Virus genome (UHGV): UHGV-1374671
Source: a virus
Length of the DNA: 64,000 bases
Strand: one strand, 5' to 3'
Below, in pieces: positions 4,193 through 62,328 of this stretch; position 1 is the first letter of the stretch, and every line of letters begins with the position of its first letter. The notes below the pieces were generated by a model. That model saw only the letters and a list, made by a program, of their open reading frames with translations. It was not told where the DNA came from and ran no database searches. A program made the translations under genes and the position numbers.

Positions 4193-4246
4193 AAGCACTG
4201 GTAAAGTGCATTTTATTTTAAAGCTAAATACCTCAAGGAGGATAAC

Positions 4247-4525
4247 ATGGCGAGAGACATTTTTGGGCGTAAGCGCGGGGCTTCCGACCGTCAGGATCAC
4301 CCGGTTCCGTACGAGATCGACTCCAGTACCGGAGAGGGTGGCACCGTCAGATACACGCGGTTCTTCGACATGGGAGATGAGCCTTGCGGAATCATGAAGG
4401 AAGAATATACGGGTGAAATGCCCAATCCCACCTTCTATCGCTGCACTTGGGCCTTTGATAAATGGGACAACCGCACTAAAGCCACGTACATTCCGATTAA
4501 CCAGTGCTGGGACTACGAGAACTAA
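4247..4525 (+). CDS. hypothetical protein (92 aa)
   Basis: RBS AAGGAGGA before ATG. Confidence 0.5.
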   Translation: MARDIFGRKRGASDRQDHPVPYEIDSSTGEGGTVRYTRFFDMGDEPCGIMKEEYTGEMPNPTFYRCTWAFDKWDNRTKATYIPINQCWDYEN

Positions 4526-4537
4526 CGGGGGTTCCGT

Positions 4538-7500
4538 ATGGCGGAACAGGCCAAATACATAACTCTGAAGGACAACAAGCTCTCGTTAAAAGACTTGTTG
4601 ACTCAGATCAGTGCAGTGCTGGAAGATGGTGTTCCCGTACTGAAGATCACCAGCTCCATTCAGTTCTCCGATCAGGTGTCTGGTGTGGTTGGCGGTCTTC
4701 GGTACAACATGGAGACCTCCTCCGTCGAATACTCCAACGACGGAGGCGCCACATGGAATGCGCTGTCTTCGGAGTCGTTCTGGTGGGAGGCTGGAAAGTC
4801 TTACACAGTGGGCACTGTCGTACTGCACGCCACTGGCTGGTATGTATGCCGGATTGCAACGAACAACGCAATCCCAGGAACGTCCGCCGAATGGAACCTG
4901 CTCACTCCTGGCACGATTTTCCAATATGTCACCAGCTCTGCGCAACTGAAAGCGGCGCTGGAAACGGCGACCTCCAAAGTGACCATTATCATGAAGGGGG
5001 ACATCACCACTGCCGTCAGCGCCACTGTGACAGCCGGTACCGTTACGATTTATTCTGACGAGGCCACCACGATACGCAGCACGCTGACCATCGCGGCTCC
5101 GTCCAACGGTAACATTTACTGGCACTCTCAAGGAACCGAATTCAGTGGCGGTTCCATCACGATCACCAGCGGCACGCTGTGGATCGACAGGCTCAAGTGC
5201 ACGGTTGGCACCCAGGCAACGCTTACCGGCGACATCAAATATCAGCGCATCGACGGAACCTTCACCGGCGGCACAATCAACCGCTGGGTGGACATGGGAG
5301 TCGACGACCTGGTTCCTAAAGACCTGTCGACGCTGGAAGAGGTCGCTTACGCGGACGCGCTGAAGTTGTACGTGGACGCCGGCAACCAGTACGGGTATCT
5401 CACAATGGCCAGCTTTGCCACCAGAGTGGCCGAGCTGGCTGCGGCGTACTTCAACATTGATCTTACCGGCCCCCTCAGCTTGAAACCCAGTACGGCTCCC
5501 CGTGGCTATATCTTCTATGCCACGGACACTGGAGATTTGTACATCATGGGCGAGAACAACGTATGGGGGCCGCCCATTCATATCCAGGGGCCTGCTGGCG
5601 CTCAGGGGCAGATCGGCTACACCGTCATGCCAGCTGTCGACGCGGACGGCAATCTGTCCTGGAAGGCGATGCTCATCAACCAGACGGAAACTGGCCCTGA
5701 AGTGCCTCAGCCCGTCAACATCAAAGGCGCTGACGGCAAATCGGCTTTTGTGATCTGGAAAGAGGAGATGGGCAACCCAGGCAGCACCGTGGACGACTTC
5801 CTTGAAGCGCTGGGCATCGGTAATCGCCGCATGATCTTCACATATCTGGATGTGGTGGAACCCGACAAGAACGTCACCTTTCTTACCAAGTACCCGTTTA
5901 TCGCGGTGCTCGACAATATTGGTCTCCAATGGGAGCTGGCAAACGGTCGCGTTCATTACAACGACGATTCCGTCACCATCAACCTGACCGATGTGTACCA
6001 GGCCAAGGGGTTGGTGGATTCTCCTGCCAGCATCGACACAGGACTGGGAACATACGCACGGGACGTCACCAAGGATGCGGAAGGGGCTTTCGCCTGGTAT
6101 AATGCCCAGGTCGAGACTTCCACGCTGTTCACGGCCCTGCAAGAGCCTGCTGTGGCCTCGTATGCGTACACCAACCCTGAGCTTACTGAAAACCCTGTTG
6201 TCGTCAACGCGTACACACCGGAAGTCAAGTCTCCGACCATCGAAGGCAACTGGTACGGGTTGTTTGGCGGGGGTGGCGGCAATGATGGTGGTACCGGTGA
6301 TGTTGAGATCGTTGGAGTGGAAACCCTGCCCACCGGGTCCGACGCCACGTTGAAAGACACCCAGGAGAGCACCTCTCTTCATCGGAAGTACATCCTGGGC
6401 ATACCGGCGGGACCTACCGGATATTCATACAGCACTCCCAAGCCGTTCGATCTGACGGAAACGTATTATCCTCCCAGTGACGACCGCAGGTACTACACCA
6501 CGGTGCTGCACCAGGGAGGCACCTGGGTCTACATCGCCACCGAGGCATCCAGCGGACACACGCCTCCGGAGCTGCCTGCCACCAGCAATGAATGGTGGCA
6601 GCTGATAGCCAAACCTGGAGAAGACGGAGAGGATATCGGCAACGGGATCTCGGTTCATAAGTTCCAGACCAAGAAGCCGTCCTCCCAGTTGCAGCTTCAT
6701 CTCCAGATGATGCGGTCCCCGACTGGTGTGATCTCAGAGGCTGTGCTGTTCCTGGATACGCTGAACACGGCGGAAGACCGTGCAAAGGTACGGTGCTGGA
6801 ATCCGGAAACCACAGACTGGGAACTGATCACGGCAAACGGGTTCGGTCCGGTGTACAACAACAATCCGGTTAATGTGGACATGTCAGATACGAAACAGGA
6901 GCGATACCTGTTCTATCGCTGGGTAACAGCATCCAACACGTCGGCCACCTGGCAGTCCGCGATTTTCCCGAACTCAGGCACAATCGATTACCTGAACTCG
7001 CTTACGCCTGATGGGCATATCGACTTCACAGCGGCCAACCTGACGGACGGCAGGTATCTGCATCTGACTCCTGCCAGATTTGTACTGGCAGTCATCGACA
7101 ACAATGGAAAACAGTGGCCGTTGGCTTCCGATGAGGTCTCTTATGATTTCGTTACAGACGAGGTCATCGTTGATCTCCAGGGCGTGATGACCAGGTCTGG
7201 TGTGGAATCCATTGTCGGCACCTGGAAGCTGATCACCAACGTAGGTATCATGGAACAGCCTATTGTCGGGGATCACACGCACGACAACAAGCCGGCGCTT
7301 GATCTGATCGGGATCGACCTGCATGGGAACATCACCATCGACGGCGCCATCGTGGTTCCAGCCAACGAGCGCGGAGGCGGTCTGTATCTGATCGACCCGG
7401 AAAACTATGCCGACACCACTACGCTTGTGGATCCCGGCGAGTTTGCGGTGTCCATCGAGCTGGTGCGGCCAGGGGACTACAATGCCATCCGTATGTACCA

Positions 7501-52458: not shown

Positions 52459-53736
52459 ATGAAAATTGTACTGGCCGATACAGTGATCACTGTGTTCGGG
52501 TGGCTCAATGTGATGGATCAGATCGGAAAGTACAAGCTGAAGATCCGCAAGACTCCTCAGGAGATCCGTGAGGAGAAGGAGATCAGACGACAGCGGTACG
52601 GAAGCGACGCCCATAAGGTGAATCCTATGCGGTACGAAGATCGCACCGTGATCGCCAAGAATCCGTCTGATCCTACCATCGCATACTTTCTCCCAGGGCT
52701 GTGGCCACGGGTGAAAGGCTATCTGGATACGCAGAAGATTACATACGAAATCGAGGACAAAAGGGATCCTTCCATCAGGCCTGACCCGGACTATTCAAAA
52801 CTGGCCGGAGCGACATTGAGACCAGGACAGGATACCGCCTTGGCCCTGATTACGTCGTTGGATTGTGGGCTAATAAATACCAGCACGGCATGGGGAAAAA
52901 GCCATCTAATATCTTTTATATGCAAGGTTTATCCCACGCTTAACATTGTCGTCACCACTGGATCCACCACGGTGGTCTCAACTCTGTACGAATATCTGTG
53001 CAAGCAGCTGCCCGGCCAGGTCGGTTACCTGTACGCCAGGGGCAACACCACGCATGGAAAACGGGTGATTGTGACCACGCTGAAGTCGTTGCCGAACATC
53101 TCTCCTGAGCGCGTCCAGTTGCTGTTGTGCGACGAGTGTCATGCCTGCGGAGACAACGAGGCCGGCAGGGCAGTGTCCAAGTTTGTGTTCAGCCGCAGAT
53201 TTGGATTCTCCGCCAGTCCGATCCGCAATGACGGCTCCAGAATCGTTATGGAGTCCATCTTCGGACCTGAGATCATGAAGATGACCTACCAGGAGTCTGT
53301 TGACGTTGGAAACATCGTTCCCATGAAGTACCTGATGCTGCCTTGTCACAAAGGGCCAACCAGCTTGTGCGACAAGCCGGGCATGGACGATGTATTCAAG
53401 AAGCGCTTCGGGTACTGGTGCAACTACAACAGGAACAGGGCTATTGTGGAACTGGTCTACGACATCAAGCAGGTGTATGAGGGCCAGATTTTGATAATGG
53501 TCGGTTCACTGGAACACGCAATTCAGTTGCACATTATGCTGCCCTGGTTCAAGGTCGCTCATTATGGCGCAACTGACTTGGACGAACTCAAGAAAAAGAA
53601 GTTCTCCAAAGACAAATACTCCGACATTGACTTTTCTCAGTACAAGATGAGCCAGAAGCAGCTGGACATTATGCGGGCCGCCTTTGCAAAAGGTACGCTC
53701 AGGTACGTGATCTGCACCAAAGTGTTTAAACAAGGT
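52459..53736 (+). CDS. SF2 DECH-box DNA helicase, exon 1
   Basis: motif I TAWGKSHL, motif II DECH; ORF runs into intron and hits stop 24 nt inside it. Confidence 0.6.
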
Positions 53737-54002
53737 AAACATCAATGCCTCGCAGCATAGGAATGTGCTGTCGTGAGCCGCTTAATTGCTGGGAACTCCG
53801 ACCGGGTAATGCCGAGGACAATCAGCAGCGAAGTCCTGAAAAGTAGGAAACGTTCAACGACTATCCCTGCGGGGAGTACACGCAAGTGCGTGGAAACAGC
53901 GGCCACCCAGAACGGGTGAAGATATAGTCTGACCTTGCATGGTAACATGCAGCTGGATTAACAATCCGGGCTGAGCGTAACGAACTCAGTTGAACACAAA
54001 AG
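53737..54002 (+). ncRNA. group I self-splicing intron (266 nt, no ORF) in helicase gene
   Basis: AATTGCTGGGAA P3/P4-like element, UAGUC P7-like element, P1 pairing exon CAAGGU with intron GCCUCG giving G.U at 5' splice site, intron ends in G; exon junction restores helicase motifs V-VI in frame. Confidence 0.6.
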
Positions 54003-57895: not shown

Positions 57896-58924
57896 ATGCA
57901 AGACTTAGGCGTCGTCGACGTCAGCATGCGGCACTTTGTCGGGCCGGTTCACATCCGGGTATGGGAGCCCGGAGATCCGTTCCCGACACTGGGGCCTTCC
58001 GTTGGCGTTGACACAGAAACCGAGCTGATCACGGACACGGTGAAGGACCCGCCGGTAGTTGTTACCGGCGTGTTCGACCCTGCGAACTCGAATTGCTGGA
58101 TCGTTTACTGGCAGCATACCGCAGCGTTCATGCGGGAGCTGAACAAGCGCGACATCCAGCAGAGGTACTTCAACGTCGGGTTCGACGAACAGGTGCTCGA
58201 CAACGAGGACGAGGAGAAGAGCCTTCTGACGGCTGTCGACGCAAGGCGGGTGCGTGATATGCAGATCCGCATTCACCTGCACGAGATCGCCACGCTGGGT
58301 TGGATCCGAGGCAATCTGTACAACCTGGCGGACTGTGCTCTGCACTTCCTGAATGTGACGCTGGACAAGGGTGATCCGGACGACTACGAGAACTCTGCAC
58401 GAATGACGTTTCGGCGGCATAATAAAGATGGGAGCGTTTATCGCATAACGGATGAACAGGCCAAATACCTGTGTTATGACTGCGCTTCCACCTGGGGTCT
58501 CGGAGAATCGGTACCGGAACAGCCAACCGAGGTGGAACATACCAAGGGCATGATCGTCCTGGCACACATCAGCACCAACGGCATTCAGGTCGACCCTGTA
58601 GTGTTCGACGCCATGGAGGAGAAGCTGTTCAAAGCCAGGGACGAGGCCAGGCTTCGTCTGCTGGCGTTTGGATTCCCAGATCCGTACAAGGACGTCAAGA
58701 AGGAGGCCGCAGCCGAGCGTCAGCTTTTCTACTCGGAATACAAAAAGCTGTGTGAATCGGCAGGACTGGAGTGCCATCTCGGCATGGAGGAACAGACACT
58801 CGATGACGAAGACGAAACCGTCATTCAGGTTCCTAAAATACCAAAGAAGGACTCTCTCAGGCTGATGGTCTGCTACCTGTATCGATGCTTCACGTTCGTA
58901 CACAATACCAAGAACGCGGCGTAG
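57896..58924 (+). CDS. family-A DNA polymerase N-terminal 3'-5' exonuclease domain (exon 1 or separate exo gene)
   Basis: Exo I VGVDTETELI, Exo III YLCYD; stop codon TAG coincides with first bases of intron-like sequence. Confidence 0.55.
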   Translation: MQDLGVVDVSMRHFVGPVHIRVWEPGDPFPTLGPSVGVDTETELITDTVKDPPVVVTGVFDPANSNCWIVYWQHTAAFMRELNKRDIQQRYFNVGFDEQVLDNEDEEKSLLTAVDARRVRDMQIRIHLHEIATLGWIRGNLYNLADCALHFLNVTLDKGDPDDYENSARMTFRRHNKDGSVYRITDEQAKYLCYDCASTWGLGESVPEQPTEVEHTKGMIVLAHISTNGIQVDPVVFDAMEEKLFKARDEARLRLLAFGFPDPYKDVKKEAAAERQLFYSEYKKLCESAGLECHLGMEEQTLDDEDETVIQVPKIPKKDSLRLMVCYLYRCFTFVHNTKNAA

Positions 58925-59247
58925 GTACCTTTGCGGCGTGAGCCGCATCGAAGAAGAAAGTGAATTGCTGGAAGCCTAAACCGGGAGTGTAGCCCGGCAT
59001 GGTAATCAGCAGCCAATCAACCGGATCGCTAAACTGGATTCAACCATCCAGCATGCACCGGGGAAAAGGTTCAACGATCATCGGGGTGTCCACCTGATAA
59101 GCGGCCCCGTTAGCGTGCAAGCGTGCGCGAAGTGCTCCGTGACGGGAAACCGTCACGATGATATGATCTGTGCTACCCGAAAGGGATAGGAAGCCCCAGC
59201 CTGATCAGCTGGATAAGCCGGGTGAGCGTAGCGAACTCACTTGAACA
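58900..59247 (+). ncRNA. group I intron ribozyme core homologous to helicase intron (5' part of IStron)
   Basis: blocks GTGAGCCGC, AATTGCTGG, CCGGG...GCCCGG, AATCAGCAGC, GTTCAACGA, CAGCTGGAT, GAGCGTAGCGAACTCACTTGAACA co-linear with 53737-54002; exact 5' splice site unresolved. Confidence 0.55.
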
Positions 59248-59272
59248 AGAACCATGAGGTCTTATGAATCGA

Positions 59273-59292
59273 CGTAAATTCTCACATTTACG
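59273..59292 (+). repeat. IS left-end subterminal hairpin CGTAAAT-TCTCAC-ATTTACG
   Basis: perfect 7-bp stem ~25 nt inside predicted left end. Confidence 0.5.
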
Positions 59293-59293
59293 C

Positions 59294-59321
59294 TTGATAT
59301 TGTTGACGTACATGCTATATT
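59294..59321 (+). promoter_or_regulatory. sigma-70-like promoter TTGATA-16-TATATT for tnpB
   Basis: seen directly; ~35 nt upstream of GTG start. Confidence 0.45.
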
Positions 59322-59355
59322 AGAACCAGGTACTATAATACACGGAAGTTTTGAA

Positions 59356-60462
59356 GTGATAAGCAGAGCTCATACAATCAAGCTGAAACCCAATAAAGCA
59401 CAGGCGATCATGCTGGCCAAGACGGCCGGTACTGCCAGGTATGCCTACAACTGGGGATTGGCCAAGTGGAATGAGCTGTACGAAGCCGGTGAGAAGTGCA
59501 GTGCTTACAGCCTGATGAAACTTTGGCAAGAAGGCAGACCTGACTGGGCATTGGAAGTGGGCGCTGCGTGTTTGCAGCGCCCGTTCATGCACCTGGAAGG
59601 CGCCTTCAAAGCGTTCTTCAGAGGACAGCGTAAGCACCCAACCTTTCACAAGAAGGGTTTGCGGGACGGGTTCTACGTCCCGAATACTCATTTCAAACTC
59701 CGTGGTAACAAGGTTCAGCTACCCAAGTGCGGACTTGTCAGAATGACCGAGCGTATTCGTTACGCGGATGTGAAGGTTGTTTCTTCGGCAGTCAAGCACC
59801 AGGCAGACGGCTGGTATGTCGTAATCCAGGTCGAGCTTGAAGAGGAACACAGAACCGAATCCGACTCTTTTGTCGGAGTCGATGTCGGATGTACCCAGCT
59901 CGCAACAGCGAGCGACGGTACGACCTGCTGCTCACCGGCCAAGCTCAAAGACCTGGAACGTCAGCTGAAACGTAGACAGCGCTTGCTGGCACGCAAAGCC
60001 AAGGGCTCCAACAATCGAGCGAAAGCGAGATTGAAGGTAGCCCGTACCTGGCAACGAATCAACAATATCAAACAAGACACAGCTCACAAGTTCACTGCAC
60101 TCATTGCCAAGAACCACGGCACTGTTTGCATTGAAAAGCTGGATGTGAAGAGTATGCAATCAGGAGACAACGCCCTCGTAAGAAAGGGCGTGCATAACTC
60201 CTGCATGTCGGAAATCCTGAGACAACTCAAGTACAAGTGTAACAACTTTATTGAAGTTGACAAGTATTTCCCGTCCAGTAAGACTTGTTCGAACTGTGGG
60301 CACATAAACGCTGAACTGACCCTTGGGGATCGCACGTATAATTGTCCGGGCTGCGGACTGAAAATCGACAGGGATCTGAACGCAGCGTTGAACCTCCGTA
60401 AGGAGGGTCTGAGGATTTACACGGTGGGTCACACCGGCAGTGCCTGTGGAGTTGCCCGGTAA
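59356..60462 (+). CDS. tnpB: TnpB (IS605 OrfB family RNA-guided endonuclease)
   Basis: RuvC-I VGVDVG, RuvC-II E in CIEKLD, zinc finger CSNCGH...CPGCG, RuvC-III DRDLNAALNL; N-terminal OrfB helix-turn-helix region; GTG start after GGAAG. Confidence 0.75.
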   Translation: MISRAHTIKLKPNKAQAIMLAKTAGTARYAYNWGLAKWNELYEAGEKCSAYSLMKLWQEGRPDWALEVGAACLQRPFMHLEGAFKAFFRGQRKHPTFHKKGLRDGFYVPNTHFKLRGNKVQLPKCGLVRMTERIRYADVKVVSSAVKHQADGWYVVIQVELEEEHRTESDSFVGVDVGCTQLATASDGTTCCSPAKLKDLERQLKRRQRLLARKAKGSNNRAKARLKVARTWQRINNIKQDTAHKFTALIAKNHGTVCIEKLDVKSMQSGDNALVRKGVHNSCMSEILRQLKYKCNNFIEVDKYFPSSKTCSNCGHINAELTLGDRTYNCPGCGLKIDRDLNAALNLRKEGLRIYTVGHTGSACGVAR

Positions 60463-60559
60463 CGGGCGGCGCTGAAGCAGGAAGATTCATAAGAATCGTG
60501 AACAGAACCACTCGGACGAGCCTGACGAGCTCCAGCTGTGTGCCGAGAACGTCAAAATC

Positions 60560-61453
60560 GTGTGCGAAATGGAGAAACCGTCACTGCGGAAAGACGCCAG
60601 GAACATGTACTCGAAGCTCCTGGAGGACTACGAGATCATGGCGTTCGACCAGGCCACCAAGGGAATCGTCATGCCGTCGTTTGTGGCGCATCTGATGGAG
60701 CACTACAACAAGCAGCGTGATTCCGGAGAGGTCGCAGCAAAGGGCTACGACTTCGGAGCCGCAGTCAAGTACGCCAGCGAGTACATCGACGATCATCCTG
60801 AATGGCTGTCGAAATCCGAGCAGATAGGTCCCAGCAAATTCTTCCAGAATCATGTGAAGGGCATCATGGAGGCCAATCCGAAGCTGGAGCTGGAGACCAC
60901 TCCCAAGAGTGGGGCAGTCAAGCTGACACTCAAGGACAAGTGGCGGTTGGAGGACAACGGCATCAAGGACAAGTTCTTGGATGCTTACATTGACTTCAAT
61001 CATTGCCAGAAATATTTAAGTACCTATATGAACCGTTTGTTCATCAAAGGGGATAATCGGATACATGCCAGGTTCACAAATATTTTGCGGACCGGACGTA
61101 CCAGCTGCACCGGACCTAACTTGCAGAATTATCCCAGCAGGGACAAGGTGTTTCCGTTGAAGAACATCTTCTGTCCTTACGATGGCATGCTGTTGTGTGC
61201 TACCGACTTCTCGTTTATTGAGTTGTGTGGCTTTGCCCAGTCCTGTTACAGCAGGTTTGGGTTCAGCGTTATGCGCGACGTCATCAACGCAGGTCTGGAT
61301 CCGCACCGCTGGTTCGCAGCGGTGATGGACAAGCTGATCAAGCCGGACCTGACGCACAAGGACGACCCGAAATGGGTCGCGGAACTGAAAGGATTTTTGA
61401 AAGCAAATGTAGACGATTCAAGACGACAAAAGGCCAAAATGGCCAATTTCGGT
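60560..61453 (+). CDS. family-A DNA polymerase palm/fingers segment (pre-motif A RIHARFTNILRTGRTSCTGPNLQNYP, motif A DFSFIELC, motif B RRQKAKMANFG)
   Basis: frame open from 60476 immediately after tnpB; ORF stops 6 codons after NFG inside motif B. Confidence 0.6.
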
Positions 61454-61672
61454 CGACCATCAAGGCCGAATTAAAACTGCGGAATTAAGCGGGGAACTCT
61501 CATTGAGACGATCCGAACCGAAGCCTGGAAGGGATTCCAGTCAGGGACAGAGCATACCGGCAGGGGAAGAACTCCCATCAGCCGACACGAGGCCGCAGCA
61601 ACTGGAGAAACAACTCTGGTTGAAAAGATATGCCGAGCTGTGTGGCGACATACAGAAGTGCTGGATAAAAAG
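61454..61672 (+). ncRNA. small group I-like intron (~215 nt) interrupting polymerase motif B
   Basis: interrupts conserved NFGxxYG motif with stops in all frames; shares GCGGGGAACTC and CGAAGCCTGGAAGGGATTCC blocks with the other two introns; boundaries approximate. Confidence 0.45.
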
Positions 61673-62328
61673 CCGGCACGATAACAAAACTGTTTCCAGG
61701 AGCACTGGGTGTCAAGACTTTCTACAGGAACTGCAGGGAGTCCGGCGTACACCTGACCATGGAAGAAGCTGAATTCATGCGGGATGCGTGGATCAGCACT
61801 TTCAAGGAAATGAAGTTCCACATGAAGCCAGAGAAGTTGCGTAACTCGACAGGGTTCGGCAACCAGTTCGGCTTCAGGGACGACGAAGAAGAGTACATCG
61901 ACCCGTCCGAGCAGGACAGGCAGTTGTACAGGGCAAAATTAATTAATGGAATGGTTAGAAACAGGTGCAGTTTCAATGCGGCCTGTAATATGCAATTCCA
62001 AGGGCTCGTGGCATTTGGCGCGAAGCTGGCAGGCTGGAATCTAGTAACTCACGGATACGAACATAGAGTAGTCAATTTCGTACACGACGAATTTCTGTAC
62101 TGCCTGTATCCGGAGGAGCTCAAGGTCCACATCCCTGTCATTGAGCGCCTGATGATCGACGGGATGAGAGTTGCCATCCCGGATGTTAAAGTAGGAGTGG
62201 AATCCAGCGTCATGCGTCATTGGGACAAGAAGGCGACGGAATTCCACGACGTGAAGTGGGACGAGCAGGGAAGACCGCTCATTGAAGAGCCGCTGTTCGT
62301 CCAGAGTGTTCTCAAAATGGCCCAGTAG
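61673..62328 (+). CDS. family-A DNA polymerase C-terminal segment (O-helix tail...motif C VHDE)
   Basis: KLFPGALGVKTF...EEAEFMRDAWISTF continues the post-motif-B region; HDEFLY = motif C. Confidence 0.55.

Follow-up and report, generated by a model that had tools for sequence, protein, structure and literature searches.

What interrupts motif B of the family-A DNA polymerase in this uncultivated phage, and is the gene behind it whole? In the window, by which we mean the whole 64,000-nucleotide stretch of UHGV-1374671 analysed here, the upstream frame reads ...RRQKAKMANFG, runs on as RPSRPN and meets a stop codon at 61472-61474, six codons past the glycine, while in a different frame further downstream the canonical continuation FPGALGVKTFY...EEAEFMRDAWI...HDEFLY picks up again; both observations had been made correctly in the original prediction. 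Its central proposal, namely that a small group I intron sits in motif B of the polymerase, is borne out by an exact junction, a covarying P3/P7 fold, covariation of P1 with the exon and a 154-bit match to a covariance model (R2, described below). Based on comparison of sequences, we consider it about 92% probable that 61454-61692 is a group I intron, 239 nt long and lacking an endonuclease ORF, which is inserted between the motif B glycine (...AKMANFG) and the phenylalanine that follows it.

The polymerase is spread in three pieces across 57.8-62.3 kb of the window, as judged by tblastn with P0001, an uninterrupted 859-aa homologue of 65% identity (Table 1). Exons 2 and 3 align by tblastn at ~65% identity to uninterrupted homologues without frameshifts or stops, and the match to P0001 residues 641-848, on 61693-62310, begins exactly at the first base of exon 3. 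Pfam DNA_pol_A is recognised on the spliced protein, which supports exon 2. Under the intron reading, the host gene would very probably be the PolA gene of an uncultivated tailed phage, a single gene in three exons and neither a pseudogene nor three ORFs. Among deposited phages, no polymerase exceeds 28% identity to it, and for annotation it matters that gene callers and Rfam both overlook its three-exon structure.

Table 1. Exons of the interrupted polymerase gene and elements of the predicted intron RNA (positions in the window)
Feature	Position	Strand	Evidence or remark
PolA exon 1	57896-58885		P0001 residues 1-325; tblastn
PolA exon 2, palm/fingers to motif B (...RRQKAKMANFG)	60506-61453	+	P0001 residues 325-640; tblastn
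P1 5' strand UUCGGU, last six bases of exon 2	61448-61453	+	
Probable group I intron, 239 nt, without endonuclease ORF	61454-61692	+	homologue junction; R1 and R2 models
Internal guide sequence GGCCGAA, P1 3' strand	61464-61470	+	minimum-energy and centroid folds; guide/exon covariation
P3 5' strand CUGCGG, with CCGCAG at 61593-61598	61477-61482	+	6/6 pairs compensatory; 99.7% of cells paired
P4 enclosing P5	61490-61515	+	P4 99.6% paired; GC/UA/AU switches
P6 hairpin, GCCUGGAA / UUCCAGUC	61523-61542	+	
P7 5' strand G(A)GCAUA, one bulged base	61550-61556	+	pairs with UAUGCC at 61629-61634; pseudoknot with P3
Extra P7.1-type hairpin between P7 and P3'	61558-61584	+	outer CGGC/GCCG, inner GGGG/UCCC
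P3 3' strand CCGCAG	61593-61598	+	
P8 hairpin, CAACUGGAG / CUCUGGUUG	61599-61622	+	6/6 modelled pairs compensatory
J8/7 (AAAAGA), then P7 3' strand (UAUGCC)	61623-61634	+	compare Rfam consensus GAAGAUAUAGUC
P9 (CUGUGU/AUACAG) and P9.1 (GUGCUGG/CCGGCAC, loop AUAAAAAG)	61638-61679	+	
3' tail GAUAACAAAACUG, ending in the terminal G	61680-61692	+	conserved in the family
PolA exon 3, FPGALGVKTFY... via motif C (HDEF) to the stop codon	61693-62328	+	tblastn

The ends of the insertion were fixed by aligning the spliced protein with 120 homologues found by searching 5.8 billion proteins. The uninterrupted homologues, more than 100 of them, all read ANFG-[FL]PG[AG][LM]G with no indel or extra residue, and the intervening sequence is therefore 61454-61692; in addition, ~15 relatives break off exactly at ANFG in this alignment, and the tblastn match of P0001 stops at 61453 and resumes at 61693. 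The start given in the original prediction was thus exact, whereas its end, at 61672, fell short of the true one at 61692, and the length of ~215 nt has to be corrected to 239 nt. With the 5' splice site after U61453 and the 3' splice site after the terminal G61692, the exon ends in GGU and the intron in CUG, in keeping with the canonical group I rule that the exon ends in U, here as a U.G pair with the guide, and the intron in G; the boundaries, once suspected of being unusual, are ordinary ones. G61692 is the first G past the conserved GAUAACA tail, and the join made there, ANFG/FPGALG, is in register with the >100 homologues. The residues KL that precede FPG in the downstream frame are intron bases read in the frame of the exon. 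A 3' boundary after G61680, which would give NFG-ITKLFPG, was considered and rejected, as its four extra residues occur in no homologue.

It had also been thought that the YG of NFGxxYG was not recoverable by any simple G-terminated join. This expectation was itself mistaken, since the >100 homologues carry [FL]PG[AG] after ANFG: motif B of the clade is NFG[FL]PG[AG], canonical PolA having NFGLIYG, and a simple join after the terminal G yields exactly the clade version. The alignment of the joined protein to the PolA motif B/O-helix, proposed earlier as a check and carried out here against a solved PolA structure, places NFG/FPGA opposite NFG/LIYG. As the clade has NFG-[FL]PG[AG] in place of NFGLIYG, the equivalent of the O-helix tyrosine is absent from this polymerase clade. 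The insertion site, directly after the glycine of motif B NFG, is what we take to be residue 763 in E. coli numbering.

The RNA of this segment can be folded helix by helix into a group I structure. P1 is predicted to form between GCCGAA (61465-61470) and the exon end UUCGGU, with U61453.G61465 as the wobble at the splice site; C61454-G61464 lengthens the helix, and its loop in the window copy is ~9 nt. P4 pairs CGGG (61490-61493) with UCCG (61512-61515), and P5 pairs UCUC (61498-61501) with GAGA (61505-61508). P6 of the window copy has a single C.U mismatch at a position where relatives have G.U. The segment AAAAGAUAUGCC looks like the Rfam consensus GAAGAUAUAGUC. P7 is modelled as G(A)GCAUA/UAUGCC. 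A hand-drawn P7 of CGGCA/UGCCG was rejected, as covariation pairs CGGC with the downstream GCCG as the P7.1-type stem. In that hairpin, 5/5 outer pairs are compensatory and 99.3% of cells are paired, and the window copy has one non-standard pair at the foot of the stem. Compensatory pairs make up 5/6 of P9 and 7/7 of P9.1; P10 is weak, with ~3 pairs, wobble included, as judged by eye. The modelled extra hairpin between P7 and P3', together with the lack of a P2, would very probably place the intron in subgroup IA in the broad sense.

Several lines of covariation bear on this fold. The single sequence by itself yields P1, P3, P5, P6, P8, P9 and P9.1 (z = -3.4), and when eight same-site introns are aligned with MAFFT, RNAalifold returns P3, P4, P5, P6, the two-tier hairpin between P7 and P3', P8, P9 and P9.1, with 34/55 pairs compensatory. 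Across 62 family introns, 97.2% of cells are paired, as compared with 69% after shuffling and 32-37% when the partners are slid by 1-3 columns, and double changes are seen in 46/56 pairs of ten helices; since this alignment was fitted to R1, a covariance model built from eight introns of the polymerase clade, the count leans towards the model, a bias of which P7, the MAFFT/RNAalifold result and the P1 test are free. P7 had been deliberately excluded from the model and was brought in afterwards as a pseudoknot; in the 62 introns 100% of its cells are paired, its outer pair, across the single bulged base, being A-U in 35 and G-C in 27.

The P1 test made use of 32 family members whose guide sequence directly precedes P3. 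A 6-mer that ends in U and is exactly complementary to the guide lies upstream in 28 of them, at a distance of 9-16 nt in the ORF-less forms and of ~800-1100 nt where the P1 loop carries an ORF. Guide and exon vary together, with GCCGAA/UUCGGU, GCCAUG/CAUGGU, GCCGUG/CACGGU and GCCCAC/GUGGGU among the combinations. In addition, the exon end TTCGGT is found in the window and in four intron-plus relatives with the same site and in 0/15 intron-minus alleles, which have TTT or TTC followed by GGC, GGG, GGA or GGT; this contrast reflects either the constraint imposed by P1 or co-conversion of flanking exon sequence.

A covariance-model search, another check put forward with the original prediction, detected the intron with both models of ours and missed it with the Rfam one. 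R1 matches 61464-61692 at 211.8 bits and finds over the window no second copy of the subfamily and nothing similar in the TnpB-bearing insertion upstream. R2, for which the only sources were the intron of phage JCL1032 and 30 IMG/VR introns from unrelated phages, most of them AT-rich, matches exactly the same interval at 154.1 bits (E ~5e-47). The Rfam model RF00028, in contrast, did not find the window intron at its gathering score (50 bits) or, with the limit relaxed to E <= 10, in searches of 3.8 kb and of 301 bases, and none of ~12 tested members of the subfamily reached the gathering score. As the same model does find other introns in the same loci, at 54-94 bits, the miss reflects model coverage and is not evidence against a group I intron. 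RF00028 thus seems to be blind to a large subfamily of group I introns of phages that is conserved in sequence; at least 120 IMG/VR contigs (L043-L162) contain its degenerate core pattern, GAACCGAAGSCT...GTCAGGGRCARMGCATA. Counts of these introns in viral metagenomes would consequently come out too low if they relied on RF00028, and R1 and R2 might be reused both for such counts and for the repair of split genes. In the AT-rich members of the subfamily, the loop of the hairpin that follows P7 repeats the J8/7 motif GAAAAGAUAU.

The anatomy, the covariation and the homology to a published self-splicing intron lead us to infer splicing, the chemistry of which would be expected to follow the group I scheme. 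In the pre-mRNA, the guide would pair with the exon end to form P1, presenting the U61453.G61465 wobble at the splice site, and the P3-P9 core would fold about the putative guanosine-binding P7 helix. An external guanosine would then attack after U61453, and the freed 5' exon would in turn attack after G61692, joining ...AAUUUCGGU to UUUCCAGGA... and restoring the polymerase as ANFG-FPGALG. The predicted spliced junction has ...TTTCGGT directly followed by TTTCCAGGA..., that is, AATTTCGGT joined to TTTCCAGGA.

The comparison set for this site consists of 42 loci of the polymerase clade (L001-L042) from IMG/VR and JGI metagenomes, collected by an alignment search; a single-protein search of IMG/VR had returned only 2 loci. 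At least 15 distinct loci are uninterrupted at the NFG/[FL]PG boundary, and a homologous intron occupies the same codon in eight (L005, L009, L015, L022, L023, L027, L034 and L038). The first six of these have a same-site intron of 1.0-1.35 kb, whose P1 loop holds an ORF of ~300-350 aa with a C-terminus that extends into the ribozyme core, and this ORF is recognised as HNH (Pfam PF01844) at 21.5 bits against a cut-off of 21.4. No HNH ORF is present in the window copy or in L038. The window copy has therefore either lost the gene or never gained it, and it cannot home alone. Such an ORF-less copy could also serve as a cheap form of immunity, in that it disrupts the target site and so shields the polymerase from the HNH endonuclease of co-infecting relatives.

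In a further frame, that with coordinate mod 3 = 0, there is no stop anywhere in 61454-61692, which contradicts the earlier statement that the insertion has stops in all frames; it is the frame of neither exon. The open stretch spans 61413-61772, contains an 89-aa ORF starting from TTG at 61503 and is not in the frame of the relatives' HNH tail. That it might be a relic of this tail was rejected on reading the codons, AAUUAA giving a stop where the relatives have AAUGAA. The open frame through the intron is probably due to chance, for which we estimate a prior of roughly 6%.

Among the 42 loci, the polymerase is interrupted at no fewer than six positions: after residues ~50-52, 85, 159 and 162, after ~101-109 of the last exon, and after ~131-134, just before the HDE of motif C. 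In L038 (4230-4931), and apparently likewise in L023, L027 and L034, two different group I introns lie 9 nt apart. The order in L038 is a 'type B' intron, positive with RF00028, at 4230-4688, a micro-exon AACTTCGGT encoding N-F-G at 4689-4697 and an intron of the window type at 4698-4931; the micro-exon must act both as 3' exon for the first intron and as P1 partner for the second. A lone 'type B' intron of 209-231 nt, placed 9 nt upstream at A/NFG, is seen in L025 (1256-1486) and L037 (~4518-4726). Because these 'type B' introns are present where the window-type one is missing, each of the two neighbouring sites is occupied independently of the other. Near the NFG site of L030, a third RF00028-positive intron (2727-2989; 71.7 bits) has ends that cannot be placed by the 5'-U / 3'-G rule. 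Tentatively, and at somewhat less than even odds, we would regard the window intron as one piece of a larger picture, in which a widespread subfamily to which Rfam is blind meets an unusually heavily invaded polymerase clade, with a possible role in immunity.

Other explanations of the insertion have to be weighed against the intron. It is improbable that the segment is a decayed, splicing-dead intron relic that leaves the polymerase as a pseudogene or truly split into two separate polypeptides. Decay would agree with the missing endonuclease ORF, with an R1 score that is the lowest among the close relatives (211.8 vs 244-279 bits) and with the C.U mismatch in P6, but no core helix is broken, neither the terminal G nor the wobble at the splice site is lost, the TTCGGT required for P1 stands unchanged at the end of the 5' exon, and both exons are fully conserved, with the identity and the unbroken frames described above. 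Two separate polypeptides, moreover, are hard to reconcile with the downstream frame, which has a stop at 61666-61668, no ATG, GTG or TTG from there to 61693 and its first start, an ATG, at 61759; a separate C-terminal protein would thus lose 22 conserved residues of motif B/O-helix.

An assembly or sequencing artefact, be it a chimeric join or an indel, has no specific point in its favour, although the window is probably of metagenomic origin, and seems extremely improbable, given that a homologous structured intron lies at the same codon boundary in at least eight distinct contigs from several assemblies, that the GC content of the insertion resembles that of the exons (0.52 vs 0.51) and that each end coincides exactly with a boundary between codons in a conserved motif. 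The TnpB-containing intervening sequence in the same gene (~58886-60505) might suggest an element of another kind, such as a miniature IS200/IS605-type element akin to it, or else a segment skipped by translational bypassing. We give such proposals hardly any credence, as R1 sees no likeness in the TnpB element, the covariation fits a P1-P9 group I fold with a P3/P7 pseudoknot and the gene found in the relatives is an HNH gene, not a transposase.

Two other intervening elements of the window deserve description. A DNA helicase ORF (52459-53760, phrog_16) is interrupted at 53727-53952 by a group I intron to which RF00028 responds strongly (88 bits). The first gap of the polymerase, 58886-60505, has a weak group I core at ~58873-59189 (RF00028 26.3 bits, under the 50-bit cut-off) and a TnpB ORF of 368 aa at 59356-60462 (Pfam OrfB_IS605, Cas12f1-like_TNB, HTH_OrfB), a combination that amounts to an IStron-like layout within a phage polymerase gene. 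The motif B insertion at 61454-61692 contains no TnpA/TnpB module and so does not qualify as an IStron. It resembles the other two introns of the window in the generic group I core only. Of the two sequence blocks that it was earlier said to have in common with them, GCGGGGAACTC does recur with one mismatch, at 53788 only, within the helicase intron, whereas CGAAGCCTGGAAGGGATTCC has no counterpart at up to 3 mismatches. Even the recurrence of GCGGGGAACTC is at chance level, since an 11-mer with up to 2 mismatches gave 22 matches in the window against 21.6 expected.

The closest link to a characterised system is provided by the Lactobacillus delbrueckii phage JCL1032, whose introns are self-splicing according to Riipinen & Alatossava 2004, as cited in PMC6669764. 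R1 finds the intron in its terL gene at 76 bits (E ~1e-25); terL is annotated as a CDS in two pieces, and the predicted boundaries, after AACGGU and after AAAUG, give an in-frame, ORF-less intron of 226 nt. The two introns fall within one structural subfamily and share an NNNGGU exon end with a GCCNNN guide, the J8/7-P7 segment AAAAUAUAUGCC, the P9.1 loop AUAAAAAG and the GAUAACA...G tail. They differ in that the JCL1032 intron resides in a terminase gene of a Gram-positive phage, has a quite divergent P4-P6 sequence and is lower in GC.

Further similarities extend to other phages. Tourasse & Kolsto 2008 (PMC2504315) described IA1/IA2 introns in tape-measure and terminase genes of Bacillus cereus group prophages, with relatives in the Staphylococcus phages ROSA and phiSH1. 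Our BLAST searches of deposited phage genomes with the window intron and a family member gave partial matches of 70-130 nt, all to the intron's 3' half, in phages including ROSA, 6ec and others of Bacillus and Caldibacillus, in some cases inside terminase or tape-measure genes; they lead into the circle of phage and prophage introns treated in that study. No close relative of the window intron turned up in the 50,697 phage genomes deposited, the best match covering 27% of the query. Common to the introns of PMC2504315 and the one described here are a highly conserved P3-P7 core and variable P1, P8 and P9, while host genes and hosts differ.

Polymerase genes of Bastillevirinae carry one to three group I introns, mostly IA and many with HNH, of 173-3279 nt, and the authors of that survey found P7 hard to predict (PMC11878797); the window, in contrast, represents a separate lineage of uncultivated phages with a divergent PolA clade. 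Against this size range and the 226 nt of the JCL1032 terL intron, a length of 239 nt is unremarkable, and the suggestion of the original prediction that the intron is a minimal one does not hold.

Introns in family-A polymerases of phages are classical, and nothing here would surprise a specialist in phage introns. Those of SPO1, SP82, Bastille and Pf-WMP3 lie at position 674, that of phiL7 at 676 and those of PhiI and W31 at 881 in E. coli numbering, and they are HNH-encoding group IA2 introns (PMC3428280). Shared with the present case are the assignment to subgroup IA, the additional pairing that separates P7 from P3', insertion at critical conserved sites of PolA and, in the relatives of the window copy, HNH; the insertion sites differ, the window copy is ORF-less, and the HNH gene begins in P6a in Pf-WMP3 whereas it lies in the P1 loop in the window's relatives. 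The window site is not among the three in PMC3428280, the paper with which it was compared. The site at the glycine of motif B adds another insertion point within a conserved part of the polymerase to positions 674, 676 and 881.
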